Shown piece by piece: positions 5,426 to 52,713 of a stretch of DNA of 64,000 nucleotides (the stretch's first letter is position 1; every line of letters starts with the position of its first letter). Source of the stretch: a virus; IMG/VR virus record IMGVR_UViG_3300009702_000023, positions 1 to 64,000 of that record, one strand, 5' to 3'. Position numbers and translations under genes: made by a program. The notes beneath the pieces are model-generated. The model was not told where the DNA came from. It did not search any database and worked only from the letters and a program-made list of their open reading frames with translations.

Positions 5426-6100
5426 ATGAATATTATAGCCGATGTTGCCGGAAGATATGACGAATTAATGTTGCTTCTGAACCAAATGCCAAAGTCAGAT
5501 TTAACTATTTATGTCGGCGATTTAAATGATCGCGGGCCAAAATCTAAACAAGTTATTGAGTATGTTATGTCTGAGCCCAATTCTATATGTTTAAATAGCA
5601 ATCATGGTGACATGTTTGTTGATTTTTATGAAGGAATTCATCGTTATTATCGAGATGATTTTCTAAGAAACGGGGGCATTACTACATTAAAATCTTACGG
5701 TTGTGGATTACAGGATGGGGATTTACAAAAAATCGTAGATGAAGTTCAGGACAATGTGCCCAAAAAACATATTGATTGGCTTAAAAATTTACCATATTAT
5801 TATGAAAATGATAATGTATTTATATCTCATGCAGCAAAAAATCCTACATTTCCCCTGGATAGCTTATGTGTAAATGATCCCAAATCCATATATTATAATT
5901 TATTGTGGAATAGAGGCGAGCCCGGAAAAATAGAAGGTAAGTTACAAATTATGGGACATAACAGTCACTGGGGAATAAAAAAGTTCGGTAATCCCGATAA
6001 ACCGTGGGCTATCTGTATTGATGGATCAAGAAAAAATAGATTAACAGGATTACATTTAACAGATTTAAGTCTTTATCATCAAGATTATTTAAAAGATTAA
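5426..6100 (+). CDS. Ser/Thr protein phosphatase-like metallophosphoesterase (atypical motif I)
   Basis: GDLNDRGPKS, SNH, NGG..T..SY, SHA, LLWNR, MGHN; DVAG in place of DxHG. Confidence 0.8.
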   Translation: MNIIADVAGRYDELMLLLNQMPKSDLTIYVGDLNDRGPKSKQVIEYVMSEPNSICLNSNHGDMFVDFYEGIHRYYRDDFLRNGGITTLKSYGCGLQDGDLQKIVDEVQDNVPKKHIDWLKNLPYYYENDNVFISHAAKNPTFPLDSLCVNDPKSIYYNLLWNRGEPGKIEGKLQIMGHNSHWGIKKFGNPDKPWAICIDGSRKNRLTGLHLTDLSLYHQDYLKD

Positions 6101-7512
6101 TTTTTAATCCAAACAAACTTTAAATTACCTAAATCATATACTTTAGTAAATCCATTAATCATCATATTTTCGGTTTCAGTTAATTTACTTAAAAATATTG
6201 GAATCATTTTTGGTAATTTAGATTTCATACATTTATACCTACTATATACTATATCACCCTTTTTATACCAATAATTAGGTTTTGTTTTTCCAACACAAGA
6301 CATCCCTAATATATTATATACATTTCCGTGGCTATATCGCAAATCACAATATGATATTATTGATTTAGGATTTTGCTCTTTTATAAAATGTTTAAATAAC
6401 TTAGATGCCCCGCCGATTACAACAGTGTACGGTTTCGATGACATTCGGACTATTTCCCATTCATATTGTTTAGTAAATCTGGGTTTACCGAAAGTCATAA
6501 TCATAACCAGTTCATCATCATAATAAAGACCATAAGCAATAGAAAAATTAGCATGGCCTTGCATATGGGTTTTATTTAAAAATGTTTTAGCTTCAGTTGT
6601 CATGACTCTTTTAATTTTACAACGGCGAGCATATATTCTATTTTTTAAAGAATTCTTGGAATCAATAATATCTTTATTTTCGCCCGGTAAAAGCTCATGA
6701 TATTTTAAATATATTTCTTTATTTTCAATATTAAATTTGGCACCTTTTTTTATATTATCTTTGGCCCATAGAGGTTTTAAATTTGTGTAATGATTCAATC
6801 TCGCGGCTTCATCATAATTAGAGGCTAGTGCCATTGGTATTATGTGCTCTAAATGCCAACCATTTGCGGTATTATTATCCCAAGTCATGCCAGGTAGAAA
6901 TTGTGATTCTAAGTGCCGTTTTAATTCTTCATATGTACAACCGATGTATTGATCTTTTTCCCCCGTTTTCTCCCAATTCTCTTTTCGCATTATATCATAT
7001 ATTCTGCGTTTTACTCTCTTTTTTATTAACCATAATTTATCATTTTTTTCTCTTGTTTTTTTATATTCTTGGGAAGATTTTATACACTTTTTTCGATTAT
7101 CGTAGTAATATTTTTGAGATTTGTTTTTTAACTTTTCAGAATAATTATCATTTTTTACATATTTTTGACGTAAATTATAATTTCGACACTCAGCGCATAT
7201 AGAATTAATCCCATCAAATCTTTGTGGATTTTTATGAAAAGCTGAAATATCTTTGATTTTATCACATTGATTGCATTTTTTCTGATTATTTTTCGCTAAA
7301 AGTTTTTGTTCTTGTATTCTTGCTGCTGTGGGAGAGAGAACCGATGGGTCTGTTTTTCTAGATTTTTGATATTCACTTGTTTTATTATAATAAAGTTTAC
7401 TTTGCTCACTTTGGCATATTTTACAAATAGATTTTTTACCATCTTTTGATCTTTTGTATTTATTAAATTCTTCTAATTTTTTATTTTTATTACATTTCGA
7501 ACAAATTTTCAT
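6097..7512 (-). CDS. Homing-endonuclease-like fusion: Zn-finger repeats + HNH domain + Hef-like C-terminal domain
   Basis: CxxC repeats; WHLEHIIP...NHYTNLKPLWAKDNIKKG; C-terminal IYARRC...GGASKLFKHF...SYCDLRYS.GNVY...VYDLG. Own sigma-70 promoter (-35 at 7545-7550, -10 at 7522-7527) supports ATG 7512. Confidence 0.75.
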   Translation of the reverse strand: MKICSKCNKNKKLEEFNKYKRSKDGKKSICKICQSEQSKLYYNKTSEYQKSRKTDPSVLSPTAARIQEQKLLAKNNQKKCNQCDKIKDISAFHKNPQRFDGINSICAECRNYNLRQKYVKNDNYSEKLKNKSQKYYYDNRKKCIKSSQEYKKTREKNDKLWLIKKRVKRRIYDIMRKENWEKTGEKDQYIGCTYEELKRHLESQFLPGMTWDNNTANGWHLEHIIPMALASNYDEAARLNHYTNLKPLWAKDNIKKGAKFNIENKEIYLKYHELLPGENKDIIDSKNSLKNRIYARRCKIKRVMTTEAKTFLNKTHMQGHANFSIAYGLYYDDELVMIMTFGKPRFTKQYEWEIVRMSSKPYTVVIGGASKLFKHFIKEQNPKSIISYCDLRYSHGNVYNILGMSCVGKTKPNYWYKKGDIVYSRYKCMKSKLPKMIPIFLSKLTETENMMINGFTKVYDLGNLKFVWIKN

Positions 7513-7552
7513 ATTATATATAATATAACACATATTCAGGGGCATGTCAAGC

Positions 7553-7584
7553 AAAAAAATAGCCCGATATTAAACCGGGCTATT
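7553..7584 (-). terminator. Rho-independent terminator after the major capsid gene
   Basis: AATAGCCCG-loop-CGGGCTATT followed by a T run on the minus strand. Confidence 0.85.
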
Positions 7585-15869: not shown

Positions 15870-18518
15870 TTAATGCTTTTTTAAACTTGATCGGGGTTTA
15901 AATATATTAATAAATGCCTCATATTCTTTATTTTTCTCGGCATTAGTTTTAATAAATAAATCTTTATTTTCGCCTAAACCATATCCAGGGGGGTATGGAT
16001 TTTTAGATTCTTGAACATTTCGTATAAAATATGTAATTGCATCGCAATTATGAACGGCAATATCATTAACGGTATAACTATTGTCTTCTTCAACTTCCAG
16101 ATTATATACTTTTCCCGTATATAAACTCTCACTTTTTGTTAATTTTTTAAAATTCGATGGGTAATTATACTTATTTTTCGAAATTATATCATGTATTAAC
16201 TTATCTTCAAATATATAAGCTAAATCTTCATTTTTATTAATGTTTGTTATTAGATCTATGGCTTGTTGCTTATCTAAGTGCCAAATATATTGATCTTTTG
16301 CCGAAGGAGAAGATTTCCATCTTCCTTCCCGCTTTTGAAATGTAATATTACCCACTAATCCTAATTTTCTAGATAATATATCAACCCCATGTATAATTTC
16401 TTTACTAATGCTATTACCGATTATTCCGGTTTTAGAAAAATAACCATCGCCAAATAAATAACCAAGTAACATATACATAGATTGTTCTTTATTCAAATCA
16501 TATATAAATGGGGGAAAATGTTTTTGGGTACTAGTGCCTAATTTTTTCAACTCTGATCTAAGTTCGGATTGTGTAACACATATAATTCTACCATTATCAC
16601 TGTCTTTTTTATAATATCGGGCCTTCGTGCTTCGAGGTTTACACTCTCCATTTTTATGTCGGTTAATAGATCGCCTAGATACGCCACGTTTACCTTTTCC
16701 ATATGTATTATGTACTGCCTTTTCTAATATACCTAAAACATTTTTTTCTCTTTTATGACCGGCAAAAGATATTTGGTGCCCATTCCCACCAACAGATCCT
16801 TCGGCAACATAATATCCGTATAAAAAACATAATTCTTTTGTAATATTAATATTTCCTTCTTCAATAAAAGGAATATAAGCTTTATGATTTTCAAAATTTA
16901 ATTCAGCAGCGGGACTCCAGTTAGTGCCAGTAATTATTTTTTGACCAGTAAAACCTTCTTTTCTATTTTTTTCAACATTGCCAACATATAACCGATGATT
17001 AGGTGTACATTGCATCAACTCTCTTCCCGGAACTTTTATGTCACAAATTTCCCCAGAATAATCTCTATTCATAGTATTTGTAACTTTTTTAAATCTACCT
17101 TGGTGAGTTAATACTTGATCTCCGATAACAATATCTTCTATTTTTTTATACCCAGCATTGGTTAAAACTTTTTGGCCAGGCAAAAAACAGGCATCGTAAT
17201 GTCCTGAAGGAATAAAAATTGTATTATTTTCTTCATCATATAAAGTTACAGCGGGAGATTTAACATATTTCTTTCGATTTTTATCCCATGTAGCATTTTT
17301 TAAATGATGTATTAAAACTTTGCATCTGGGGTGTATTATAATTTTTTCTGATGCAATCCTCATCCTGAGATTGTTTAATGCAGCGTCTTTATTATCTTTT
17401 GCTGTAGGAATAAATAATAAATTATGTTTATAATTTAAATCATTCAATAAAATTAAGTTATTATTATCAGATACTCTTAAATATGGCTCTTTATATTCTC
17501 CCGATGCCGGGTTAGAATATACTTTCTGTTCTTTTTTCTTAATTTCCTTAGCTAATACATCTGTACGTAATGCTTGACCTTTAATATAAAATTCATCCTC
17601 AATAACGGTAACGGCATTTTTAAAATCATAATATCCAAACAAAACCACTGTTAAATCATCAAATCCTATGTCCATTGACACATAGGCGTCATAAAATGGG
17701 GGTCTTGGCCAGGCTTTTATACATTTTTCTTGAATAGCTGTTGTAAATTCGGGAATTACGGCTTTTTCAGAGTCAATAATAATTTCACAAAGGTATTCTC
17801 GGCGGAAATCATCATCTTTTTCTTTTAAAGGGTAACGATTAATGATTTTTTGTCTTTTTTCGGGAGTCATCATGGGATTATCAAATAACGTGTACTTAAT
17901 TAACTCCCCCGTCAACTCGTTTGGTTGAACAAACTCCGTTATAAATTCATGATCGGGCTTAGGTGATGGTGTAGAAGCTAAAATGCCCCGACCGCCGGTA
18001 GTATCCGCCGTTGGAGCAAGGACAGAATTAACAATATCCTTCAATTCATCGCAAAAACCTGCCTCATCGACAATCCATAGATCGGATTTACCTCCGCGAA
18101 GTGATTGGTAGTGGCCATTATCTGTTCCTGCTATCTGAATTTGACTTCCATTAGGAAAAAGGTACATTTTGGCATTAGTTTTATATTCTGGGCGCAATTC
18201 CGGGGGGCAATCTTTAAAAATATCTTGCATAATCGGTTTAATAATCTTTTGCACCATGTCTTGCTTAGGACAAACATATTTAACAATAGAATCTGGTTTT
18301 TTGAGACACTGTTCAACAGATAATACACATAATAAATAACTTTTGCCCAATCTTCGGGCACAAGTAATAACCGTTATTTCTTTATTGAAATCATTAATAG
18401 AGTTATACATGCGTTTTTGAACTTCATGTAATTTCCAATGAATAACCCCTCGTCGCCAAAGAGTAAATAATGCCTCTTTAGGTGTTGGTTTTTTTATTTC
18501 CATTAGCAGATCCCGCAA
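15870..18518 (-). CDS. terL: Terminase large subunit with intein
   Basis: CARRLGKS Walker A, LRGG, WIVDEAG Walker B, ASTP, MDIG nuclease motif; true start may be a few codons downstream. Confidence 0.92.
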   Translation of the reverse strand: MRDLLMEIKKPTPKEALFTLWRRGVIHWKLHEVQKRMYNSINDFNKEITVITCARRLGKSYLLCVLSVEQCLKKPDSIVKYVCPKQDMVQKIIKPIMQDIFKDCPPELRPEYKTNAKMYLFPNGSQIQIAGTDNGHYQSLRGGKSDLWIVDEAGFCDELKDIVNSVLAPTADTTGGRGILASTPSPKPDHEFITEFVQPNELTGELIKYTLFDNPMMTPEKRQKIINRYPLKEKDDDFRREYLCEIIIDSEKAVIPEFTTAIQEKCIKAWPRPPFYDAYVSMDIGFDDLTVVLFGYYDFKNAVTVIEDEFYIKGQALRTDVLAKEIKKKEQKVYSNPASGEYKEPYLRVSDNNNLILLNDLNYKHNLLFIPTAKDNKDAALNNLRMRIASEKIIIHPRCKVLIHHLKNATWDKNRKKYVKSPAVTLYDEENNTIFIPSGHYDACFLPGQKVLTNAGYKKIEDIVIGDQVLTHQGRFKKVTNTMNRDYSGEICDIKVPGRELMQCTPNHRLYVGNVEKNRKEGFTGQKIITGTNWSPAAELNFENHKAYIPFIEEGNINITKELCFLYGYYVAEGSVGGNGHQISFAGHKREKNVLGILEKAVHNTYGKGKRGVSRRSINRHKNGECKPRSTKARYYKKDSDNGRIICVTQSELRSELKKLGTSTQKHFPPFIYDLNKEQSMYMLLGYLFGDGYFSKTGIIGNSISKEIIHGVDILSRKLGLVGNITFQKREGRWKSSPSAKDQYIWHLDKQQAIDLITNINKNEDLAYIFEDKLIHDIISKNKYNYPSNFKKLTKSESLYTGKVYNLEVEEDNSYTVNDIAVHNCDAITYFIRNVQESKNPYPPGYGLGENKDLFIKTNAEKNKEYEAFINIFKPRSSLKKH
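16047..17189 (-). mobile_element. Intein (381 aa) with LAGLIDADG endonuclease
   Basis: CFLPGQKV start, VYNLEV...IAVHN|C end; FLYGYYVAEGS and LLGYLFGDGY blocks. Confidence 0.93.
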
Positions 18519-19467: not shown

Positions 19468-20388
19468 ATGCATAATTTAAAACTATACCCATATAAAATG
19501 GCCAGCGAATCTGGAAAAGACTTATCCCGACTACTTGGTATTAAACGGGTAAAACCAAATGGGAATTATGTGCCGAAAAGGGGCCATACTGTTGTAAATT
19601 GGGGAAATAGTCGATTTCCCGATTGGCTTGAACTAGCAAATAGACGAAACGTAACTATCCTAAATGATGTTGGTGCTGTAGGAAATGCTACCAATAAACT
19701 TACCACTTTGAGAATTTTAAATGAAGCAAGGGTAAATATTCCACGGTTTACAGTAGATAAGCAAAGTGCTATGATCTGGTTAGAAGATTGCAATACCGTT
19801 ATAGAACGACACAAATTGACCGGAAATAGCGCAGAAGGCATTCGGGTTGTAAATATAGATGATCCTGATATGCCTAGCGAATTAAATGATGCCCCACTTT
19901 ATACTAAATTTATTCCTAAATCTAATGAATTCCGTGTTCATGTTTTTCGTGGAGAAATTATTGATTACCGCGAAAAAAAGAAACGAAAATTAGAAAATCG
20001 CCCAGAGAATTTTAATAAATATATTTCTTCTCATACTATGGGCTGGGTTTTTTGTAAAAATAATATTAAACATATTGATAGTGTCAAAGAAGAGGCAATT
20101 AAAGCGGTTAATGCTTTGGGCCTTGATTTCGCTGCGGTTGATGTTATTTTTTATGAAGGCACCCCATATGTATTAGAGGCAAATACTGCGCCCGGAATTA
20201 TGGGTACAACTCTAGCAATATATGCTAATACTTTTCGAAATTTTATGGGCCTACCCAGTATTGAAATTATAAATGATAATAATGTAACTTCCGAAGCTGT
20301 CGTCGAGACATTAGACTCCGGTTTAGTTACCTTAACACTCGATTATACTACGGCAAGAAAACTGAAGGCATTACTTGCTGATGTATAG
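19468..20388 (+). CDS. ATP-grasp ligase (RimK-like, phiEco32-type)
   Basis: VVNWG, NKL, EFRVHV, ALGLDFAAVD, VLEANTAPG. Confidence 0.85.
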   Translation: MHNLKLYPYKMASESGKDLSRLLGIKRVKPNGNYVPKRGHTVVNWGNSRFPDWLELANRRNVTILNDVGAVGNATNKLTTLRILNEARVNIPRFTVDKQSAMIWLEDCNTVIERHKLTGNSAEGIRVVNIDDPDMPSELNDAPLYTKFIPKSNEFRVHVFRGEIIDYREKKKRKLENRPENFNKYISSHTMGWVFCKNNIKHIDSVKEEAIKAVNALGLDFAAVDVIFYEGTPYVLEANTAPGIMGTTLAIYANTFRNFMGLPSIEIINDNNVTSEAVVETLDSGLVTLTLDYTTARKLKALLADV

Positions 20389-27974: not shown

Positions 27975-29015
27975 GTGAAAACGGAGCTTAAGTTAAATAA
28001 AAACATAAAATTGAGTAAAACCCAATTGCATTATTACAATAAATTGTCGAGTAAAGACAAACAAAAATATCTATTGTCAAAATTGGGAGTGAAATTTGGT
28101 GTTCCTATGAAGGTTGATAAACTTCATAATTATAAAATTGATAAATTATGTCAAAAAGGGAGAAATAGCATATTGCGTCAATTTCGGGAGATAACTAATT
28201 GTTCCAGTTGTGCGGAGCACAAACCAATAAATGGACTTAAAGGTTCATTCTGGGTGGGAGTGGAAATTGAATGCAATATACCTGATTATATTGGGGAATG
28301 CACTGAATGTGGTGGAACTAGTGAGGTAACATGTTATGATTGTGGCGGTAATGGTTGTGAAGAATGTGGTGGTTATGGTGAAATTAATTGTCTCGAATGT
28401 GATAGCGGGAGCATGGGTTTTAATTATTTAAGAGACAAAATTAAACAAGCCGGGATTAGACGAGCTTCAGTGCGTCGAGATGCGTCTCTATGCTCAGTTT
28501 GTGGTGGGGTGGAGATTACCCTTCTCTTTAATGCTGCGCGTAGCTATGAGCCTCTCAGGCGCTTGTGCGACCTTTTGGGTGACCTAGATGCTGAAATTGA
28601 TTCTGATTGCGGTTTACATGTTCATTTAGATATGAAAGATAGGACAAAAAGACAAGTTATGTATATGAGTAAAAAAATAGAAAAATACATTATTCCTCTG
28701 TCTCTTATGGTCCCTGCGTCAAGACGAGATAATAGATATTGTAGATTAAAAGCCGGAGATATTGATAAACATAATGATAGATATAACGCAATTAATACTG
28801 ACTCGTGGAGAAAACATAAAACAATTGAGATTAGACTGCATTCCGGGAGCACTAATTTTAAGAAAATTAAGAATTGGATTGAATTATTGCGAAAAATTGT
28901 TAATAAACCCGGTCCTAAGGTTAAATTAAACGAAACTAATGAAATGATCCGACATTTGGGCATTAAATACCCATTGGCAAGATATATTAAACAGCGGGAG
29001 AAAAAACATGTGTAA
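27975..29015 (+). CDS. Amidoligase (COOH-NH2 ligase) with inserted CxxCxGxG zinc finger
   Basis: VGVEIE, RDASL, GVEI, CGLHVHLD, RYNAIN, TIEIRLHSGS.NF.KI.NWI. Confidence 0.85.
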   Translation: MKTELKLNKNIKLSKTQLHYYNKLSSKDKQKYLLSKLGVKFGVPMKVDKLHNYKIDKLCQKGRNSILRQFREITNCSSCAEHKPINGLKGSFWVGVEIECNIPDYIGECTECGGTSEVTCYDCGGNGCEECGGYGEINCLECDSGSMGFNYLRDKIKQAGIRRASVRRDASLCSVCGGVEITLLFNAARSYEPLRRLCDLLGDLDAEIDSDCGLHVHLDMKDRTKRQVMYMSKKIEKYIIPLSLMVPASRRDNRYCRLKAGDIDKHNDRYNAINTDSWRKHKTIEIRLHSGSTNFKKIKNWIELLRKIVNKPGPKVKLNETNEMIRHLGIKYPLARYIKQREKKHV

Positions 29016-30021
29016 AATATTAACATTTACAAACGGCGCTAAGCTTAATACGAGTGATATACAAAAAATCGGTCAAGAAATGTTATACCTTGACCCAGAC
29101 GGTTTTGGTTATGCAATTAAAGGAACTAAAGGCATATTCGGTGAGAAATATATCGGTTCTAAATTCACGGTCAGTATTACCAATACTAAGCCTCTCCCTA
29201 AAATGCTATTAGAGCCTTTAAGAGAAACATTCGGCGAATACTCCAAGATTGATGGCCCCGCGTTGTTCCATGGCCGGACTTCGACTAATTGTCTTAATCT
29301 TAATAATACTCATCCTATACAAAAAAATAATTGGAATTTAATACATAATGGTGTCGTAACCGATCATGGTCCTAAATATAAAATGATTACAACTAATGAC
29401 TCGGAACATGTATTAGAACATTTGATAAACGGTGGCATTAAAGAGGTCTCCGAACATCTCAGCGGGTATTATGCATTTACAGCCATTGACCCTAACGGAT
29501 TACTCCACATTTGTCGTGACGATGTTGCTAAACTCTTCTCCACTTGGTCCCCATCTCACGAAACATATATATTTAGTACCACTCCCGATTTGCTGACTAA
29601 TATAGCTAAATTGTGTAATATTACAATTGACTCAATAGAATTAGTAAAATCAGAAACTTATTCAACCTGGAATAATAATGAATTGATTAATGCCGAGACT
29701 TTTAACTCTCGTGGGTTTACATCACATGAACAAAAACATTCTAAACGCTCATTGGGGTATGATCTCCCGAATTCCGGGGATAATATAGTCGATGTTACAG
29801 ATACGGGTGATAATTATAACTATGATGATTATAATGACGATTATTATAATGAACTGGACTATTTAGACGATGAATATAAAATCTACGACGATCATGGCTC
29901 CCGAATGACGGTCTCCGAATTTTATCAATTAGATGATATTAATCAATTATTATGTACTATTGTGCGTCCTGATGGTACGGAGATTAATTTAACTAAATAC
30001 GAAAAATATTATGCGGGGTGA
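29008..30021 (+). CDS. Class II (Ntn) glutamine amidotransferase
   Basis: N-terminal Cys2, DGFG, HGRTST, NTHP, HNGVV, NDSE. Confidence 0.88.
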   Translation: MCKILTFTNGAKLNTSDIQKIGQEMLYLDPDGFGYAIKGTKGIFGEKYIGSKFTVSITNTKPLPKMLLEPLRETFGEYSKIDGPALFHGRTSTNCLNLNNTHPIQKNNWNLIHNGVVTDHGPKYKMITTNDSEHVLEHLINGGIKEVSEHLSGYYAFTAIDPNGLLHICRDDVAKLFSTWSPSHETYIFSTTPDLLTNIAKLCNITIDSIELVKSETYSTWNNNELINAETFNSRGFTSHEQKHSKRSLGYDLPNSGDNIVDVTDTGDNYNYDDYNDDYYNELDYLDDEYKIYDDHGSRMTVSEFYQLDDINQLLCTIVRPDGTEINLTKYEKYYAG

Positions 30022-31286: not shown

Positions 31287-31610
31287 ATGAAAATTTGTAA
31301 TGGTAATTTAACCATAAATAAAGACAATGTTAATGATTTTAAAAACCTTGAAGTTGTAATAGGACGTATAAAATTTGAAAATAAAGTTAAATTTAATGCA
31401 CCTAAATTAAAAATTGTTGGCTCTTGGATTTTTATGAATGAAGGTATGGAGTTTAATGCGCCAAAATTACAAATTATTATGGGAGCTATTAAGATGGTTA
31501 ATAATGCCAAGTTTAATGCACCGAAATTAGAAATAGTCTGTGACTATGTTGGTTTATATAATGGCGCTAAATTAATAGCCCCAAAATTAAAAATAAAGGC
31601 AGGTAAATAA
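31287..31610 (+). CDS. Short LRR-like repeat protein (FNAPKL repeats), paralogue of 36081
   Basis: 22-aa repeats; N-terminus MKI..G.L.INKDNVNDFK.LE shared with 36081. Confidence 0.7.
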   Translation: MKICNGNLTINKDNVNDFKNLEVVIGRIKFENKVKFNAPKLKIVGSWIFMNEGMEFNAPKLQIIMGAIKMVNNAKFNAPKLEIVCDYVGLYNGAKLIAPKLKIKAGK

Positions 31611-32167
31611 TGAAATATCTATTAATTGTATTATCTTTTAGTTTGCTTTATTGTGGCAAATCTCTTCACTACGGGCCGGTATGCCATAGTGAGCTAAGAC
31701 CAGGGGCATTAGACACAGTGCCAACATTGGGCCGTTATGGAGCAATGAGCACCTATCCACTATACTCCTGTGTTAATTCCCCGGACAATGTTGTTGTGGA
31801 GCGAGATGCGAGGGTTATATACTCAGTTTATATACCCAGGGGTCGGAAGCATCGTAAAATATCGTATTCGGCTTATGGCGAATTAACTAATGACGTGGGT
31901 AAACAAATGGAAGTGGATTGGTATTTTGTTTTATCTGATAGCCCGACTAATGTATTAGGCACAGAGATTACAAGACGAAAGGGATATAATATTAGCCCCG
32001 AAATGCACCATGGGATTGTTGGAGAGTCGGGGGTATATGTATTCCCTAAAGAGTTTCATGGTTATTTAAATTTTGTTGTATATTCTGCAAGTGGCGAGTT
32101 AAATTATTTTAACGAGATGGTGAAAGTTGAAACCTATGGTCAAATGTCAGTAGTTAATTTACACTAA
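31610..32167 (+). CDS. Putative lipoprotein / exported protein
   Basis: MKYLLIVLSFSLLYC signal. Confidence 0.5.
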   Translation: MKYLLIVLSFSLLYCGKSLHYGPVCHSELRPGALDTVPTLGRYGAMSTYPLYSCVNSPDNVVVERDARVIYSVYIPRGRKHRKISYSAYGELTNDVGKQMEVDWYFVLSDSPTNVLGTEITRRKGYNISPEMHHGIVGESGVYVFPKEFHGYLNFVVYSASGELNYFNEMVKVETYGQMSVVNLH

Positions 32168-32178
32168 GGGAATATAAT

Positions 32179-33249
32179 ATGAAAGGATATAAAGCATTTA
32201 ATAAAGATTTAACTTGTCGAAAGTTTCAGTTTGAAATTGGCAAAACTTATGAGCATTCGGGAGAATTAAGTTTATGTAACTCGGGTTTTCATTTTTGCAC
32301 CAAATTGGCAGATTGTTTTAGTTATTATATTTTTAGTGATAAACCTATTATTTGCGAAGTTGAAATATTGGGTAAAGTATTAACAGATAGTCAACGAGAC
32401 TCTAAAGCCTGTACTGATAAAATAAAAATTATTAGAAAATTATCATGGGATGAAGTTTTAAATTTAAGCAATTCGGGCTATAATAATTCGGGCTATAATA
32501 ATTCGGGCAATTATAATTCGGGCAATTATAATTCGGGCGATTATAATTCTGGTCATTATAATTCGGGCTATCGTAATTCGGGTCATTATAATTCGGGCAA
32601 TCGTAATTCGGGCAATTATAATTCGGGCGATTATAATTCTGGTCATTATAATTCGGGCTATCGTAATTCGGGCAATTATAATTCGGGCGATTATAATTCG
32701 GGCGATTATAATTCGGGCTATCGTAATTCGGGCAATTATAATTCGGGCTATCGTAATTCGGGCGATTATAATTCGGGCGATTATAATTCGGGCGATTATA
32801 ATTCGGGCTATCGTAATTCGGGCAATTATAATTCGGGCGATTATAATTCGGGCTATCGTAATTCGGGCAATTATAATTCGGGCAATTATAATTCGGGCAA
32901 TTATAATTCGGGCAATTGTAATTCGGGTTTTTTTAACACTAACAATCCTAAACTTAGATTATTTAATAAAGAAACAAATTATGAATCTAGTAATGAGATA
33001 TATAATAAATTACAAAAATTACAAAAATATAGTAAACCCATTTTAATATGGGTTTCAGAAAATAAAATGACTGATCAAGAAAAAAAAGACAATCCTAAAT
33101 ATGAAACAACTAAAGGATATTTAAAATATACTGGCAAACAAAAATGGGATAAATTAAGTAAAGAGGATGAGGATTGGCTTACATCATTGCCCGAATTTGA
33201 CTCTGATATATTTTTTGAATTAACAGGACTAAAACTGGAGAAAAAATAA
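32179..33249 (+). CDS. NSGxx pentapeptide-repeat protein with conserved phage N-terminal domain
   Basis: YKAF..DLTCR.FQFEIGKTY...LC.SGFHFC domain, then 31 NSGxx units. Confidence 0.8.
   Translation: MKGYKAFNKDLTCRKFQFEIGKTYEHSGELSLCNSGFHFCTKLADCFSYYIFSDKPIICEVEILGKVLTDSQRDSKACTDKIKIIRKLSWDEVLNLSNSGYNNSGYNNSGNYNSGNYNSGDYNSGHYNSGYRNSGHYNSGNRNSGNYNSGDYNSGHYNSGYRNSGNYNSGDYNSGDYNSGYRNSGNYNSGYRNSGDYNSGDYNSGDYNSGYRNSGNYNSGDYNSGYRNSGNYNSGNYNSGNYNSGNCNSGFFNTNNPKLRLFNKETNYESSNEIYNKLQKLQKYSKPILIWVSENKMTDQEKKDNPKYETTKGYLKYTGKQKWDKLSKEDEDWLTSLPEFDSDIFFELTGLKLEKK
32470..32934 (+). repeat. 15-bp coding tandem repeat, 31 units
   Basis: AATTCGGGCNNNNNN. Confidence 0.95.
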
Positions 33250-33411: not shown

Positions 33412-34686
33412 ATGATTGAAAAATTAACAGATAAACAAGAAAAATTAGTTTCGGTTTATAGAGATAAATGGCTGGAAATCGGGAGATCAGTTAAACCTAT
33501 AGATAAAGAAAAAACCACAAAGTCAATTAATTGGCTATATAAATTTGGGAAACGTAGTGAAACCCCTTATATGTGGTTTTGTGATAGCCCATTACAAATG
33601 CAATTAATAATTAATTTATTGCGAGATGAAGATTTTAAAAAAGTATTGGTGGAAAATCTTAGGTCTAATCTAGGGTCTAATCTTAGGTCTAATCTTAGGT
33701 TTAATCTAGGGTCTAATTTAGAGTCTAATCTTAGGTCTAATCTAGGGTCTAATCTAGGGTCTAATCTTAGGTCTAATCTAGGGTCTAATCTTAGGTCTAA
33801 TCTAGGGTCTAATTTAGAGTCTAATCTTTGGTCTAATCTAGGGTCTAATCTTTGGTCTAATCTAGGGTCTAATCTTTGGTCTAATCTTAGGTCTAATCTT
33901 AGGTCTAATCTTAGGTCTAATCTAGGGTCTAATCTTAGGTCTAATCTAGGGTCTAATCTTAGGTCTAATCTTTGGTCTAATCTAGGGTCTAATCTTTGGT
34001 CTAATCTAGGGTCTAATTTAGAGTCTAATCTTTGGTCTAATCTTAGGTCTAAAAATTTAAAATTTGAACATTTTTTTAGTCCCAATATTGAATCGTATTG
34101 GGTCGGATATTATGATTATATTTTACATGAATTATTTCCGGAAAAAATAAATGAATTTGAAGAATTTAGTAAAAATTGTATAAATTTTTATAAAAATACA
34201 TATTTAATTGTCCCATTTGAAAATATTTGTTTTATTTCAGAAAGGCCAATAGAATATAATTTAAATGAAGAAGGTAGATTACATAGTTTAGATAAACCAT
34301 CAATGAAATTTAAAGATGGATATGAATTTTATAGTTTAGATGGTATAACTATAGATAAAACAATTATTGATGCTTGTAATGAAAAAACGGAGCCCAATAA
34401 AATATTAAGTTTAAAAAATGTAGAGCAAAGATTAGTTGGAATTAAATATTTTGGAATTGAGAATATGTTAGAACAATTGGGGGGTAAAATTATAGATGAA
34501 TATAAATATTATAAATTATTAGAGGTTGAAATCGAGGGTAGCAAAGAAAAACTATTGCAGATGGAAAATCAAAGTGGTAATCAAATACATTACGAATTTG
34601 TAACTCCCGATATTACTACTTGCAAAAAAGCATTATCTTGGAGAATAGGATTAGATATATATAATGAACCAAAAGCAATCTCATAA
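33412..34686 (+). CDS. DUF6745-like protein with SNL[RGEW] tetrapeptide repeats
   Basis: LT..QE.....YRDKWL..G N-terminus; ISERP...GRLH..D.PS.KF.DG..FY.LDG, NVEQR C-terminus. Confidence 0.75.
   Translation: MIEKLTDKQEKLVSVYRDKWLEIGRSVKPIDKEKTTKSINWLYKFGKRSETPYMWFCDSPLQMQLIINLLRDEDFKKVLVENLRSNLGSNLRSNLRFNLGSNLESNLRSNLGSNLGSNLRSNLGSNLRSNLGSNLESNLWSNLGSNLWSNLGSNLWSNLRSNLRSNLRSNLGSNLRSNLGSNLRSNLWSNLGSNLWSNLGSNLESNLWSNLRSKNLKFEHFFSPNIESYWVGYYDYILHELFPEKINEFEEFSKNCINFYKNTYLIVPFENICFISERPIEYNLNEEGRLHSLDKPSMKFKDGYEFYSLDGITIDKTIIDACNEKTEPNKILSLKNVEQRLVGIKYFGIENMLEQLGGKIIDEYKYYKLLEVEIEGSKEKLLQMENQSGNQIHYEFVTPDITTCKKALSWRIGLDIYNEPKAIS
33655..34050 (+). repeat. 12-bp coding tandem repeat, about 32 units
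   Basis: NNG-TCT-AAT-[CT]TN. Confidence 0.95.
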
Positions 34687-35416: not shown

Positions 35417-36080
35417 ATAAACCAAAAGTAATTTTAATCCCAGTTTCAAGACTACAGAAACTAACATTTATTAGTAAATTAGTTAAACTTAAATCCGAAC
35501 ACTGGTCGGGGGAATTGGCGTTGGCCGCATATAATAATAGTGATGAAATTAAACCAATGCTCCAGGAATTGGGGGCTACAGACTACTTCCTAATTGATAA
35601 AGAAAGATTCATTAGTTATGTTAACTTGCATGATCCCGATCTTATGAAAAAAATGAAAAAGGGTTTAGCCGATAAAAGGATTAAATTTGACACAGCGCAC
35701 AATGCTAAAAAAGAGGATTTTATGATTTATGATGTAACTTATGATACATATTGGACATTAGTGTGATATATGAAATATTCAATTGAACTTATAAAATTAT
35801 CAAAATCGGGAAGGGCGGTTAGTCGAAAAGAAAAATTCTTTTATAATATTAAAGATGTAAAAGAATATTATAATCAAGCTAAAAAAGAATTTAATACATT
35901 AATTAATGTTAAATTATATGATAGTACACAAAGCCCTAAATGGACAAAAAAGTGCGATTATATTATTAGTTTACAACAAGATAAAGGTACTTTTTATATT
36001 AGTGAACAAAAAGCGAAAGGATAGAAGATGAATTGGTATTATTTTCAAACAGATACCAGTTTGATAAAAAGGAGTATTTT

Positions 36081-37106
36081 ATGAAAATTCATAAAGGCGA
36101 TTTGTTAATTAATAAAGATAATGTTAATGATTTTAAAGATCTCGAAATTGTAACTGGTTGTGTTTCTATACATGAAAGAGTAAAGTTTATCGCCCCGAAA
36201 TTAAAAACAATTGGTAAATATACCTCGATATCTTATGGGGCAGAATTTACTGCTCCGAAATTAAAAACTATTGGCGGTGATGTATTTATTCAATCGGGGG
36301 GAGAATTTAATGCTCCGAAATTAGAAATTATTAGACAAGAAGTTTATATTAATCCGCAAGGAAAATTTGTAGCCCCCGAATTAGAAATAATTGGGAAGTA
36401 CTTATCACTATATAATGGGGCAGAGTTTAATGTTCCGAGGTTAGAGGCTATCGGAGGCAGAGTCGCCTTATCTAAGGGGGCAAAGCTTCGGGCGGAGAGG
36501 TTGGAGGTTGTCGGAGGTTCTGTCTACGTTTATAGGGGGGCGGAGGCTCGGGCGCCGAGGCTGGGGGTCGTCGGGCATTATGTGTGCTTGTTGGGAGGGG
36601 GTAAGTTGGAGGCACCGGGGTTGGAGATAGACCTATCTTTGGAAGGTCCACTGATCGCAGAGATGAACCTGCGGTTATTATTGTGGCGAAAGGGCTTCGT
36701 TTTAATAGATGGCATCTTATCTAAATTATTAAGTGAGAAAACTGTTGGCGATGTTAATGTAATGAAAGTATTAAACATTGGAGATACTAAACCGTCATAT
36801 ATTGTGGAAAGGAATAATGCATTTGCTCATGGCAATACTATTAAAAAGGCAATAGAGGATATTCGCTACAAAATCGGAGACAGGAATGTATCAGAATTCG
36901 GGGGGTGGAAAGACAATCTTGATCAAGAGATTAGTTTGGATGTCGCTATTACAGGTTATCGAGTTATCACTGGGGCTTGTGAAGCGGGAGTGAGGGGGTT
37001 TATTAATTCAATTAAAGTGCCGAAGAAATTAACGCCTAATGTAATACTTAAATTAACCGAAGGTCAATATGGTAATGACACATTTCGGGAGTTTTTAAAC
37101 AATTAA
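36081..37106 (+). CDS. LRR-like repeat protein with conserved C-terminal domain
   Basis: ATG 36081 after AAGGAG; about eight 22-aa F.APKL..IG repeats; FAHG.T...A, YRVITGAC..G C-terminal domain. Confidence 0.75.
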   Translation: MKIHKGDLLINKDNVNDFKDLEIVTGCVSIHERVKFIAPKLKTIGKYTSISYGAEFTAPKLKTIGGDVFIQSGGEFNAPKLEIIRQEVYINPQGKFVAPELEIIGKYLSLYNGAEFNVPRLEAIGGRVALSKGAKLRAERLEVVGGSVYVYRGAEARAPRLGVVGHYVCLLGGGKLEAPGLEIDLSLEGPLIAEMNLRLLLWRKGFVLIDGILSKLLSEKTVGDVNVMKVLNIGDTKPSYIVERNNAFAHGNTIKKAIEDIRYKIGDRNVSEFGGWKDNLDQEISLDVAITGYRVITGACEAGVRGFINSIKVPKKLTPNVILKLTEGQYGNDTFREFLNN

Positions 37107-37809
37107 TTTGGGAGAAAAAACAATGTTTTTAGGTCAAGAATTTAATGACGGTGATATTGTAAGAGTGAGATTGAAAACCGAAGAACAATTGGATATAGTA
37201 ATGATAAATATGGATGACTATGATAAATTTTCATTTTATACCGCAGAGTTTTGGGGCTTTTTAGGAACAGAGATTGATTGTATTTATAATCAAGAATCGG
37301 GTTTAAAATTTCATGGTGTTGTAATTCCTCAATTTATATGTGACGAAATTATTTCTGGCTATATTAATTGGGCGGAAGTTGAAGATGGGGCGCACTTAAA
37401 TGTTATGTTATTAAGTCCGTATGAAATAGGATATAAAGATCTATATAATATTAATAGTAATGGCAATTTAACTTCTACGGATAACAAAACTATATATAAC
37501 ATTCCAATAGACAATTTTTATCAAAAAAATGTTGAAATCATTTTTAATAAAGAATCAAATAGTTTTTGTTTACGCGGTTATAATCAAAAGCTCCCTTTAG
37601 ACTTGATTAAAAAAATTAATAATCCGGTAAAATCTACACCGAAAACGCCAAATAAATATAAAAAATTAAGATTACCTATTAGTAGAACAGCTTTAATATT
37701 TAAAGAAGATGGTAAAATGCAATTAGGCACTTTAAGTATTAAGAAAAAAGATGCTTTGTTTTTACTTCGCAAATTGGCTATTGAATATAATTATTTAGAG
37801 GAAGAATAA

Positions 37810-39054
37810 ATGCAATTTAGTAAAAAATATCCACTAGAAATTAGTTTTATTGAGCATAGTAATCCGAATATTTCAGCTATTCATATGGATGCTATTAAAA
37901 AAATTAGAAAATGTCGAAAGACATTAAAAAATGATTATTCTAAAATGTCGGATAATTTAAAAGAACAATTGATTGAAGAAATTCAGAAATATAGAGGAAG
38001 AATACATTTTCATAAAGCCAAACGGCGTAAAGCTAAATTAAAATATAAAGATGTTGAAATGATTGTTCCGGTAAATTCAATGGGAATGATTCTCCCTAGT
38101 AAATTTCGGGGGTATAAAAAAGAAATTATTAATCAATTACAAAAAAATAGAGAAGATAGAAAAAAACAAAATGAAAAAGTGACATTTATTGGTAGAATAG
38201 ATTATTCCTTATACGGTGGGGTTCATAAAAAACAGAAAACGATTTTAAAACTTTTTAGAGAAATTGCCAAGAATAGAGTTAATAGTCCAAGAAATCCTAA
38301 AGCCGAAGAAAATCATGTGGGACTTGAAATAGAATTTTTTTCAAATTATGATAGAGATACAGTTTGTAATTTTTTTATTGATGCAAAATTATCACAGTTT
38401 GTTAGAATAATGACAGATGTTTCAATTAAACCTTCTAGCGAAAAACCTGTTGGTTTAGAATTATGTCTGATTGCCCCCGAAAGTCGTTTAGAAGAGATTG
38501 TTCGGCGAGCTTGTGAGGTATTAACTGATCTTGATGCCAAAACTAATGAAAGCTGCGGCCTACACGTTCATCTCGATTGTCGAAATCGCAGTCAAGTAAC
38601 ACTTTTTTATAATATGGTTAAATGTCAAGATTTATTATTTAAATTGGTTGATCCTTCAAGAACGGGTAATAAGTTTTGTTTAAAGCAAAGAAGTCCTATT
38701 TGGGAAAAAGCAAATACAGGCCATTATGCTGCTATTAATAAAGGTTCATATTTAAAACATAAAACTATTGAAATCAGAATGCATCACGGAACAACAAATT
38801 ATAATGAAATTATCTTATGGGTTAAATTATTAATAAAAATTGCCAATTATAATAAACATTTTAAGGATATTAACTCAGTTGATAGAATTTCGAAGATATT
38901 AAAATTAGATAATAATTTAAAACAGAAATTAAATACAAAAATGAGTATAAATAAAAAGAATCCAGAGCAAGGGAGAGTTACTGCTACTGAATTGATGTTT
39001 GATACTGCCCGCGATTTTTATTATACGAGACAGTGGTTGGACTGGGGGATGTAA
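37810..39054 (+). CDS. Second amidoligase (COOH-NH2 ligase)
   Basis: VGLEIEF, TDVSI, GLEL, SCGLHVHLD, HYAAIN, TIEIRMHHGTTN. Confidence 0.85.
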   Translation: MQFSKKYPLEISFIEHSNPNISAIHMDAIKKIRKCRKTLKNDYSKMSDNLKEQLIEEIQKYRGRIHFHKAKRRKAKLKYKDVEMIVPVNSMGMILPSKFRGYKKEIINQLQKNREDRKKQNEKVTFIGRIDYSLYGGVHKKQKTILKLFREIAKNRVNSPRNPKAEENHVGLEIEFFSNYDRDTVCNFFIDAKLSQFVRIMTDVSIKPSSEKPVGLELCLIAPESRLEEIVRRACEVLTDLDAKTNESCGLHVHLDCRNRSQVTLFYNMVKCQDLLFKLVDPSRTGNKFCLKQRSPIWEKANTGHYAAINKGSYLKHKTIEIRMHHGTTNYNEIILWVKLLIKIANYNKHFKDINSVDRISKILKLDNNLKQKLNTKMSINKKNPEQGRVTATELMFDTARDFYYTRQWLDWGM

Positions 39055-52035: not shown

Positions 52036-52713
52036 ATGAGTAATTCAAAAAATAATTCGGGTCATGATAATTCGGGCGATTATAATTCGGGCAATTATAA
52101 TTCGGGCTATCGTAATTCGGGCTATCGTAATTCGGGCGATGATAATTCGGGCAATCGTAATTCGGGCTATCGTAATTCGGGCAATTATAATTCTGGTCAT
52201 TATAATTCGGGCTATAATAATTCGGGCAATTATAATTCGGGCGATTATAATTCGGGCAATTATAATTCGGGCAATTATAATTCGGGCTATCGTAATTCGG
52301 GCCATAATAATTCGGGCGATTATAATTCCGGTTTTTTTAACACGAATAGTCCTAAACTTAGATTATTTAATAAAGAAACAAATATGAAAAAATCTGATAT
52401 AGTTATTCCATATTTAAATTTACCAATTACCGAATGGATTTCTGAAAAAAATATGACTGATAAACAGAAAAAGGATAACCCAGATTTTCATACTAAGGAA
52501 GGAATTTTAATTACCAGATCATATAAAGAGGCATGGCAAATTGCATGGGCTAAGGCTACTCCAGAGCAAAAACAAGAATTCCTAGATTTACCCAATTTTG
52601 ATGCCGATATCTTCTTAGAGATAACCGGAGTAGATGTTAGGAAGAAAGATTCGTGTGATGGTAAGGTTGTTGAAATTGATGGTAAAAAATATAAACTAAG
52701 TGAGATAAAATGA
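52036..52713 (+). CDS. Second NSGxx pentapeptide-repeat protein
   Basis: 19 NSGxx units, then GFFNT..PKLRLFNKET...LPNFD.DIF.EITG as in 32179; own promoter at 51985-52012. Confidence 0.8.
   Translation: MSNSKNNSGHDNSGDYNSGNYNSGYRNSGYRNSGDDNSGNRNSGYRNSGNYNSGHYNSGYNNSGNYNSGDYNSGNYNSGNYNSGYRNSGHNNSGDYNSGFFNTNSPKLRLFNKETNMKKSDIVIPYLNLPITEWISEKNMTDKQKKDNPDFHTKEGILITRSYKEAWQIAWAKATPEQKQEFLDLPNFDADIFLEITGVDVRKKDSCDGKVVEIDGKKYKLSEIK
52054..52338 (+). repeat. 15-bp coding tandem repeat, 19 units
   Basis: Same unit as 32470-32934. Confidence 0.95.

Follow-up and report, generated by a model that had tools for sequence, protein, structure and literature searches.

GC enrichment in the tandem repeats of a phage gene family and an extreme, G-rich block in one beta-solenoid gene

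The DNA analysed here (the window) is a stretch of 64,000 nucleotides, positions 1 to 64,000 of IMG/VR record IMGVR_UViG_3300009702_000023. The whole record is a phage contig of 73,835 bp with 33% GC and is estimated to be 88% complete. On the plus strand, the gene at 36081-37106 encodes a phage protein of 341 amino acids (P0001), described here from its translation and an AlphaFold2 model (mean pLDDT 91). The protein is laid out as an N-terminal cap, approximately eight beta-solenoid units of 20 amino acids, a linker helix and a conserved C-terminal alpha/beta domain. Residues 1-189 of the model align to right-handed beta-helices (Z 15-17), a result which is generic for repeats. P0001 has no match in Pfam, PHROG or PADLOC, and comparison of its fold with the PDB using Foldseek gave no match at E ≤ 0.001. 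Structure-atlas matches to the C-terminal part all score < 0.9 and are leads only. IMG/VR contains 186 relatives of P0001; precomputed annotations place PF01030 (Recep_L_domain) on seven relatives and PF13306 (LRR_5-like) on one.

The proximal, AT-rich part of the array (36117-36434, plus strand) consists of units R0-R4 and codons 1-6 of R5. Its codon usage is native, GC3 in segment 36081-36434 being 0.197 compared with 0.194 expected (z 0.08). Unit R5 (36417-36476, plus strand) is a hybrid, as revealed by a switch in identity and a change point at 36435, and holds the 5' edge of a GC- and G3-rich block (36435-36698, plus strand). The block covers the rest of R5, R6, R7, a degenerate R8 and the linker helix, and so extends approximately 50-60 nt beyond the repeats into single-copy sequence. 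Its 3' end coincides with the start of a conserved IDGILS motif, at the domain boundary. The conserved C-terminal domain follows (36699-37103, plus strand), and 135 residues of P0001 lie beyond the patch. This domain shows a mild surplus of G-ending codons (22 compared with 12 expected; GC3 0.29 compared with 0.20, z 2.7), and a per-10-codon profile shows two small G-rich islands in it, at approximately 36846-36900 and 36966-37011.

An earlier note, made from the letters of the window, had described a sharp shift from A:T to G:C inside the repeats of this gene. The shift is real: the codons quoted for early (GAA TTT AAT...) and late (GAG GCT CGG...) units are present, and the patch is the top composition outlier of the genome. 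In a sliding GC scan, which the note had suggested, the patch was the maximum of the whole record (0.61 in 200-nt windows and ≤ 0.54 elsewhere, z 4.7). It was also the most extreme of 1,464 in-frame 240-nt windows drawn from all genes, with a GC3 of 0.65 (mean 0.22, sd 0.069) and a G3 of 0.50 (mean 0.115, sd 0.053). The block itself, 264 nt or approximately 88 codons, has a GC of 0.58. By repeat unit, GC is 0.27-0.38 in R0-R4, 0.52 in R5, 0.57 in R6, 0.70 in R7 and 0.55 in R8. GC3 of the block is 0.65 (G3 0.48, C3 0.17), compared with 0.24 expected for the same amino acids (z 9.0). Genome codon usage predicts third bases of A40 C10 G12 T30 for these amino acids, whereas A17 C15 G43 T17 were observed.

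On the sense strand, A falls from 0.37 in early units to 0.18 in late units and G rises from 0.19 to 0.42, while C remains flat (0.14 to 0.16) and T declines from 0.30 to 0.24. A>G is therefore the dominant change, with T>C secondary and T>G also present. Counts against the AT-rich consensus, which vary with stringency, give 25-53 A>G, 9-19 T>C and 4-15 T>G changes. The earlier note had named A>G and T>C as dominant; A>G is indeed the commonest, but T>G has to be added, and at four-fold sites T is lost without a gain of C, only G being elevated (codon-table count). Such a loss is not a pure transition (deamination) signature. As the note had stated, silent and replacement sites are affected alike (base counts and codon table). 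Frame and the 60-nt register hold across eight units, and the predicted solenoid fold is intact, with pLDDT of 93-97 in the patch region.

The limits of the block were placed by model fitting, which moved them slightly from the 36420-36700 first proposed. A step model (36435-36698; p_in 0.66, p_out 0.25) fits a little better than a Gaussian hump (log-likelihood -199.6 and -202.0, respectively). The preference is weak (difference 2.4); the step edges lie at two conserved motifs. The hybrid nature of R5 is clear from its identities: codons 1-7 are 86% identical to R2/R3 and 57-62% to R6-R8, whereas codons 8-20 are 67% identical to R6 and 44-46% to R1-R4. Third-position likeness is 0.65-0.70 among the late units, compared with 0.10-0.60 for early-late pairs. 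At equal unit positions the late units have in common AGG (position 8), GAG (position 10) and GGA; they also have GTC at position 12, which occurs in unit p3 of a paralogue as well. The sharing of derived codons did not reach significance in a permutation test (P = 0.12). Since derived codons are common to the late units, many of the A>G changes counted would be one event inherited by several units. The sister repeats had been taken as a clean ancestral reference, and this did not hold up, because R5 is a hybrid and the late units carry common derived codons. The late units have diverged (58% identity at the best 60-nt register) and no current homogenisation is visible. Analysis of best matches at the level of single repeats did not separate an origin in situ from import.

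A donor for the block was sought widely. A word-indexed search of 5.8 billion proteins with the patch alone returned just P0001 itself, and an exhaustive HMMER search of 1.84 billion representatives gave relatives of ≤ 51% identity and no donor. No donor emerged when the patch was compared with 80 family loci by blastn and tblastn, in the 93 fetched loci overall, or in the contigs of the source run at ≥ 85% likeness, and the gene had no blastn match among 50,697 phage records. The nearest relatives are P0062 (ENA, a 951-bp contig) and P0093 (JGI, a 7.6-kb contig), which were compared as proteins. Scans for close relatives gave none in IMG/VR for P0001 or P0062, and none in JGI metagenomes for P0093. 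Identity between P0001 and P0062 is 0.47 in the N-terminal part, 0.51 in the patch and 0.51 in the C-terminal part. In aligned columns, GARP residues make up 0.38 of the patch in P0001 compared with 0.21-0.24 in P0062 and P0093, and R:K is 7:4 compared with 0-1:4-6. As these two relatives are not enriched in Arg, Gly, Ala and Pro, and identity is equal in patch and flanks, the shift appears to be lineage-specific and there is no phylogenetic discordance. The earlier note had argued against a foreign insert, and in this it is supported both by the searches, which found no donor, and by a nearest relative equally distant in patch and flanks.

The note preferred local directional mutation to a foreign insert. 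In its fullest form this would be a strand-biased process acting in situ on once AT-rich units and turning sense A into G; K>R, I>V and E>G replacements would have persisted where they were tolerated. Candidates are the deamination of adenines in a non-template strand exposed within an R-loop or a G-rich region, and some targeted mutator not yet known. The direction of the change, from sense A to G with C flat, fits such a process, as do its lineage specificity relative to P0062 and P0093 and the failure of the searches to find a donor. In addition, 23 of 29 two-fold purine-ending codons in the block end in G (usual in the genome, approximately 17%), and the weaker G3 excess of the C-terminal domain is what spill-over would give. 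However, four-fold sites lose T and A to the same extent and gain only G, the codons common to late units leave few independent events, and step-like edges with a hybrid R5 are not expected. A burst of replacements should have lowered the identity of the patch to its relatives, and it is not lowered. To our knowledge there is no natural DNA adenine-directed local mutator, and a literature search for one found none. The contig, at 88% completeness, contains no match to a CDA-type deaminase (PF00383) and no reverse transcriptase. Hypermutation in situ is thus only partly supported, and as an account of the whole block it is possible but unlikely. Of the note's preference, the absence of a donor stands; the step fit, the hybrid R5 and a family-wide tendency (below) speak against the rest.

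Selection on the nucleic acid or its translation is favoured by the G-specificity of the enrichment, which neither mutation bias nor biased repair predicts. Rare G-ending codons and Shine-Dalgarno-like GGAGG sequences might slow ribosomes while the solenoid is being completed and before the C-terminal domain emerges; alternatively, the block may form a G-rich RNA or DNA element (a long-loop quadruplex or an R-loop). Mean within-amino-acid codon frequency is 0.13-0.30 across the block and 0.45-0.65 elsewhere in the gene, and the block stops at a domain boundary. A 284-nt patch contains six of the 27 plus-strand copies of GGAGG in the genome, 11 runs of at least three G and one long-loop G4 motif at 36535. 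A G-rich repeat that encodes Gly-Gly and Leu-Glu-Val accounts, however, for the GGAGG copies, and approximately 88 codons is long for a pause site. There is no canonical G-quadruplex (loops ≤ 7) in the patch, its RNA folds no better than shuffles (z -1.5 on the plus strand and -0.1 on the minus strand) and an Rfam search at E up to 1 gave no match. A promoter and terminator scan found nothing above shuffles, and overlapping ORFs were just stop-free runs of ≤ 82 amino acids, as expected for GC-rich DNA. Replacement sites shift in the same way, which codon-level selection alone does not explain, and the closest relatives appear from their amino-acid composition to do without the shift. Selection as the main cause is therefore regarded as improbable.

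An adenine-poor, GC-rich, in-frame patch with foreign codon usage in an AT-rich phage gene recalls a diversity-generating retroelement (DGR), such as the mtd VR/TR/brt system of Bordetella phage BPP-1, and the gene probably encodes a binding protein, as mtd does. The target of a DGR is typically a C-type-lectin or Ig-like fold near the C-terminus, over approximately 100-150 bp; adenines in it are replaced by any base, chiefly at the first two positions of AAY codons. The focal patch is unlike this in being 264 bp long, in the middle of a gene and in a beta-solenoid, with its strongest signal at synonymous third positions and a gain specific to G. No candidate reverse transcriptase (RVT_1, PF00078) was found in the 73.8-kb record, in a search that was positive in four of 14 control genomes. 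A search for tRNA genes also found none. In cis, even the best template candidates differ from the patch at 27 non-adenine positions per 120 nt, within the range of shuffled controls (24-28), and two partial template patterns were absent from IMG/VR and 185,579 species genomes in a search of low sensitivity. The note's doubt about a classical DGR is supported. An orphan variable region would need its template and reverse transcriptase to be elsewhere, in the 12% of the phage missing from the contig or in a bacterium, and is considered extremely improbable.

Assemblies frequently break within arrays of this family (of 60 analysed loci, 30 begin inside an array at a contig end), which speaks for a chimera formed within the repeats. 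It would require two switches within 264 bp while leaving frame, register and predicted fold intact. A Logan contig of the source run (an independent assembly; 18,083 nt, depth 17) spans 35600-37600, and with it the whole gene, with zero differences. The Logan contig bearing the paralogue has the same depth (17.1). As the Logan contig was built from the same reads, it excludes an assembler-specific chimera, which the note had raised, rather than every artefact. A chimera is almost certainly not the source of the block.

A truncated paralogue of 107 amino acids lies upstream (31287-31610, plus strand) and contains only the cap and four AT-rich units. It matches residues 1-111 of P0001, that is, the AT-rich part, with 49% identity, and its GC3 is 0.15 (0.19 expected). 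Together with the step fit, this restricted match favours a composite origin of the array over mutation of a patch. The stop codon of the paralogue overlaps the start of an unrelated gene (31610-32167), the product of which opens with a signal-peptide-like stretch ending in Cys. Other arrays in the same phage also carry a surplus. In a pentapeptide-repeat array with a period of 15 (TRF; 32470-32927, plus strand), synonymous GC is elevated in the repeats only (GC3 excess +0.16, compared with -0.05 in the rest of the gene) and window z reaches 2.5-3.7 within the array only; its units are near-identical, so its codons are not independent. A second pentapeptide-repeat array (52052-52328, plus strand) has a GC3 excess of +0.15 in the repeats and +0.02 in the rest.

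The same pattern runs through the family. In 52 of 60 loci, which are not phylogenetically independent, repeat GC3 was above what amino acids and local codon usage predict (mean +0.13, Wilcoxon P = 2e-9), whereas the C-terminal domains of the same loci had an excess of +0.01 (P = 0.32). Among 66 TRF arrays, comprising at least eight apparently unrelated repeat types as judged by eye from consensus units, 59 had repeats with a GC3 excess above that of the remaining gene sequence (+0.18 and -0.015, respectively). The excess correlates with repeat homogeneity (Spearman 0.44, P = 4e-4), but homogeneity also tracks locus GC (rho 0.50). Locus L083 provides a sharply bounded example, an array with a GC of 0.57 between flanks of approximately 0.30. 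The patch in P0001 is an extreme case of GC enrichment that is general to tandem repeats of this gene family, not a one-off. AT-rich relatives have GC3 excesses of -0.10 to +0.23, and the +0.41 of the block is roughly double their maximum. The block also differs in kind: the family excess is mainly C3 (+0.10) rather than G3 (+0.03), and with G3-rich windows assessed in the true reading frame G3-C3 exceeds 0.25 in no relative. Furthermore, relatives show no GC enrichment in the final 60-nt bin ahead of the C-terminal domain, unlike the focal gene.

Family members in phages of 40-45% GC have arrays with a GC of 0.53-0.59 and a GC3 of 0.47-0.72, close to the values of the block. The block may be a short mosaic tract acquired by recombination with an unsampled subfamily member carried by a phage of higher GC, the two conserved motifs being the sites of cross-over. 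Phage mosaic joints arise by recombination between diverged homologues at short conserved stretches, and the block resembles them in its foreign composition, the conserved motifs at its bounds and its hybrid junction unit. The shift involves amino-acid usage as well as codons, as would be expected of a sequence that had long resided in GC-richer DNA, and phages commonly carry two family genes (L083, L085). Despite this, protein sets, family loci and source-run contigs yielded no donor. Patch and flanks have the same best relative at the same distance and the subfamily-specific linker is kept, so any donor would need to combine close relatedness with a very different composition. G3 is far above C3, unlike in every GC-rich relative; sense-strand four-fold sites of the genome prefer C over G, and amelioration would therefore not yield a G bias. 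Import is considered quite unlikely.

The reading favoured here, tentatively, is that of a composite array, the distal part of which shows repeat-linked, recombination-associated GC enrichment. The block would be the distal sub-array (the last two-thirds of R5, R6-R8 and the linker helix), joined in register to the AT-rich proximal module at the conserved Ala-Pro-Lys/Arg-Leu motif. The proximal module also exists apart, as the truncated copy at 31287. The GC-rich codons and the residues rich in Arg, Gly, Ala and Val would then be the extreme of a property common to family arrays. The likeliest route would be GC-biased repair of heteroduplexes during exchanges that homogenise or reshuffle units, within and between arrays; exchange of array segments with the paralogue or a co-infecting relative may have contributed. 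Recombination-linked biased repair is what we infer to be the cause of the GC excess.

GC-biased gene conversion is known from eukaryotic multigene families, and bacterial recombination has been inferred to show it as well. The block and the family resemble it in an AT-to-GC synonymous shift tied to repeated, recombining sequence, in the absence of the excess from the adjacent single-copy part of the gene and, possibly, in a greater strength in more homogeneous arrays (a trend confounded with locus GC). They differ in that these are intragenic tandem arrays of phage genes; a literature search did not find GC-biased conversion described in such arrays, the discussion being of cellular genomes. 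The focal block differs further, being strongly G-biased on one strand, with units that are no longer homogeneous, and reaching into a single-copy linker. A bacterial parallel is provided by the leucine-rich-repeat genes lgrA-F of Protochlamydia amoebophila, which have 41-43% GC in a genome of 34.7% and whose variation in codon usage is attributed mainly to the LRR domain (PMC2216083). They too have tandem leucine-rich-type repeats in DNA that is GC-richer than an AT-rich genome. However, these are whole 5-kb bacterial genes, interpreted as foreign and enriched in third-position C (PMC2216083), whereas the focal shift affects half of one small phage array and G dominates.

The biased-repair model does not account for the strong excess of G relative to C on the sense strand, as a G3 of 0.48 and a C3 of 0.17 are not predicted by a strand-symmetric repair bias. 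A further reading would be a targeted, template-independent mutator directed to G on the sense strand (such as deamination of adenines in a strand exposed by transcription), which rewrites a few solenoid units that are then amplified. This would represent a route to hypervariable phage binding proteins other than a DGR, and is very improbable.

If the repeat-linked GC3 excess survives phylogenetic correction, it would be evidence for a recombination-associated GC bias acting on phage genes over a few hundred bases. A practical rule would follow: when an AT-rich phage gene contains a patch rich in GC and poor in adenine, the patch may just be the mark of a tandem array and is not necessarily foreign or the target of a DGR. 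In this phage, the block would mark a composite, reshuffled, putative binding-type protein in the early region, and of its features only the G-over-C bias might yet conceal a novel phenomenon.

The GC-shifted patch described in the earlier note is real: in a sliding-window analysis the highest GC content of the whole record falls there, within the gene for the 341-residue repeat protein P0001 (36081-37106, plus strand; early/middle region). GC content is 0.27 to 0.38 in its repeat units R0-R4 and 0.52, 0.57, 0.70 and 0.55 in R5, R6, R7 and R8, respectively, in a genome of 33.4% GC overall. The block comprising the rest of R5, R6-R8 and a linker helix (36435-36698) was the top outlier among 1,464 in-frame windows, both for third-position GC (GC3, 0.65 against 0.22 ± 0.07) and for third-position G (G3, 0.50 against 0.115 ± 0.053). 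With amino acids held constant and the phage's own codon usage applied, the expected GC3 of the block was only 0.24 (z 9.0), and third bases were A17 C15 G43 T17 instead of the expected A40 C10 G12 T30. The N-terminal part of the gene was at expectation (GC3 0.197 against 0.194). The C-terminal domain was mildly raised (0.29 against 0.20 expected, z 2.7), its surplus of G3 (22 codons ending in G, 12 expected) being due to two small islands in otherwise AT-rich sequence, at 36846-36900 (GGG GGG TGG) and 36966-37011 (GCG GGA GTG AGG GGG; both plus strand).

A Logan contig of the source run spans the P0001 gene with zero differences at a depth of 17; it was built from the same reads as the record and its support is not fully independent, but it makes an assembler-specific chimera, raised earlier as a counter-explanation, very unlikely. 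An artefact is, overall, very unlikely.

P0001 begins with a cap followed by eight 20-residue units in a constant 60-nt register; frame and register are kept across the units, as had been claimed. Its AlphaFold2 model (mean pLDDT 91) has three parts: a regular β-solenoid (residues 1-182), within which the GC-rich units are modelled at pLDDT 93-97, then a helix (residues 188-203) and, after it, an α/β domain. Structure alignment of the solenoid with right-handed β-helices gave Z scores of 15-17, a generic level for repeats. Foldseek returned no significant match to the model, and P0001 matched nothing in Pfam, PHROG or PADLOC; for some relatives, precomputed matches to Recep_L_domain or LRR_5 exist.

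The patch had been read as local directional mutation or DNA-level selection, dominated by A>G and T>C changes, with the sister repeats and a paralogue as ancestral reference. On the sense strand A is indeed halved and G doubled in the block, but C is flat; at four-fold sites a codon-table count shows A and T lost equally and only G gained, which is not a pure deamination signature. Third-position G+C along the gene was fitted slightly better by a two-edge step at 36435-36698 (0.66 inside, 0.25 outside; log-likelihood -199.6) than by a Gaussian hump (-202.0). The 5' edge falls on a unit's conserved Pro-Lys/Arg-Leu motif and the 3' edge at the beginning of the conserved IDGILS motif. R5 is a hybrid of early and late unit types: its first seven codons show 86% identity to R2 and R3, whereas for codons 8-20 the figure is 67% to R6 and only 44-46% to R1-R4. 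The distal part of R5, R6 and R7 are alike at third positions (0.65-0.70) and have derived codons in common at matching places in the unit (AGG at 8, GAG at 10, GGA at 13), although a permutation test of the shared codons alone was not significant (P 0.12). By these likenesses the distal units derive from, or have been homogenised to, a unit that was GC-rich beforehand, and their 25-53 A>G differences do not represent independent events. The paralogue, a truncated 107-residue copy (31287-31610, plus strand), aligns only to P0001 residues 1-111, exactly the AT-rich module; the sister repeats, for their part, make no clean reference of the kind proposed. In-situ strand-biased mutation of once AT-rich units, which several of these features weaken, is unlikely, though the foremost of the alternatives.

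An unrelated gene (31610-32167, plus strand) overlaps the paralogue's stop with its own start codon (TAATGA). The first 200 nt of that ORF have raised GC (up to 0.53), and at the N-terminus of its product a signal-peptide-like stretch, which ends in Cys (MKYLLIVLSFSLLYC-G), resembles a lipoprotein signal.

The suggestion that the patch is no foreign insert fared better. No donor was found among 80 IMG/VR loci, at ≥ 85% likeness in source-run contigs, among 5.8 billion proteins queried by word index with the patch alone, or among 1.84 billion representatives screened exhaustively with HMMER; the top HMMER matches were family members at ≤ 51% identity. Identity to the nearest relative, P0062, is even throughout (N-terminal 0.47, patch 0.51, C-terminal domain 0.51), the subfamily-specific linker motif is kept, and sequence comparison indicates no phylogenetic discordance between patch and remainder. 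Compared with the two nearest relatives, P0001 differs in composition in the patch only (Gly/Ala/Arg/Pro fraction 0.38 against 0.21-0.24; R:K 7:4 against 0-1:4-6), so the shift is probably lineage-specific. A GC-richer, as yet unsampled member of the subfamily is an unlikely source of the block.

That selection maintains an element of rare codons or rich in G is slightly less probable than import. Of 27 GGAGG motifs on the plus strand of the genome, six lie within the block; its RNA folding was no better than that of shuffles, and it held no Rfam match, no meaningful overlapping ORF and no canonical G-quadruplex. The earlier note's doubts about a classical adenine-only diversity-generating retroelement were well placed, and a target of such an element is highly improbable: no reverse transcriptase (RVT_1) was found in the contig, and the best template candidates in cis had, per 120 nt, 27 positions breaking the 'same base or A' rule, as against 24-28 for shuffles. 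Two partial template patterns had no match in IMG/VR or species genomes in a low-sensitivity search. A search of the contig for a CDA-type deaminase (PF00383) likewise found none.

The record (73,835 bp, the window being its first 64 kb; completeness ~88% by CheckV; subsurface metagenome) is from a tailed dsDNA phage encoding a large terminase with intein, portal, major head protein, family-B DNA polymerase, primase-helicase, PD-(D/E)XK nuclease and ClpP; no tRNA genes were found in the contig. The terminase (15870-18518, minus strand; 882 residues) is matched over roughly residues 443-836 by Hint, intein-splicing and LAGLIDADG profiles (Hint_2 and LAGLIDADG_3 above Pfam cut-offs, Intein_splicing below); the insertion looks like an intein containing a homing endonuclease. 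A 485-residue HNH/homing-endonuclease-like gene (6097-7554, minus strand; PHROG matches, none in Pfam) adjoins the major head protein gene. The P0001 gene has small ORFs and genes for amidoligases and further repeat proteins as its neighbours. Two amidoligases, a glutamine amidotransferase and a RimK-like ATP-grasp enzyme in the early region (19468-20388, 27975-30021 and 37810-39054, plus strand) are possibly a peptide-ligation or modification set.

GC enrichment of repeats is widespread in the family. Relative to the GC3 expected from each relative's amino acids and the codon usage of other genes at its locus, solenoid repeats were raised in 52 of 60 loci (mean +0.13, Wilcoxon p 2e-9) and C-terminal domains of the same genes were not (+0.01, p 0.32); these p-values are optimistic, as loci are phylogenetically non-independent and identical codons recur within homogeneous arrays. 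Among 66 TRF arrays (at least eight apparently unrelated repeat types, periods 12-120 nt), the excess was greater in the repeats than in the gene remainder in 59 (+0.18 against -0.015), and its direction is consistent across repeat types. It correlates with repeat homogeneity (rho 0.44) and also with locus GC (rho 0.50). At one locus (L083) an array of ~0.57 GC is sharply set off from flanks of ~0.30, and another (L086) has a similar pattern with a different, 8-residue repeat. In the focal phage, two pentapeptide arrays show an excess of +0.15 to +0.16, in repeats only. Unlike these, the tetrapeptide array (33655-34052, 12-nt period) of a DUF6745 protein (33412-34686, plus strand), which has a weak PADLOC match to a type I specificity subunit, shows none (-0.01).

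The best-supported reading, held tentatively and at less than even confidence, is a composite array with repeat-linked, recombination-derived GC enrichment. The proximal module, AT-rich, native in its codon usage and also present as the truncated paralogue, would have been joined in register, within R5, to a distal sub-array and linker representing an extreme form of the enrichment typical of the family. Recombination within and between arrays may have produced this enrichment, with GC-biased repair the likeliest cause. This model does not account for the preference for G over C, for how large the excess is or for its reach into the single-copy linker. The block's excess (+0.41) is more extreme than that of any AT-rich relative (-0.10 to +0.23); the family excess is chiefly C (C3 +0.10, G3 +0.03), whereas the block favours G, and in GC-rich relatives G3 roughly equals C3, none reaching its G3-C3 of 0.31-0.35. 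Literature searches yielded no description of such enrichment for phage arrays; GC-rich LRR genes in one AT-rich chlamydia are a loose precedent (PMC2216083).

The family is common among phages (186 IMG/VR relatives). About half of the analysed loci (among L003-L082) start within a repeat array, at the end of a contig: units of 24-66 nt that are nearly identical break short-read assemblies, so that database copies of the gene are often incomplete. The P0001-type C-terminal domain is joined to several, apparently unrelated repeat types. That of L086 (388-1242) has 55% identity to P0001, yet different N-terminal repeats; the units preceding the domain (in L086, L008, L016, L024, L039, L041-L044 and others) include NSSVVARG-type (8-residue), SGYNSQLAS-type (9-residue), CTFDTGSY-type and LRR-like LTSLPDGFNPTVGG repeats. 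The family thus looks modular, with one constant C-terminal domain and exchangeable repeat arrays.
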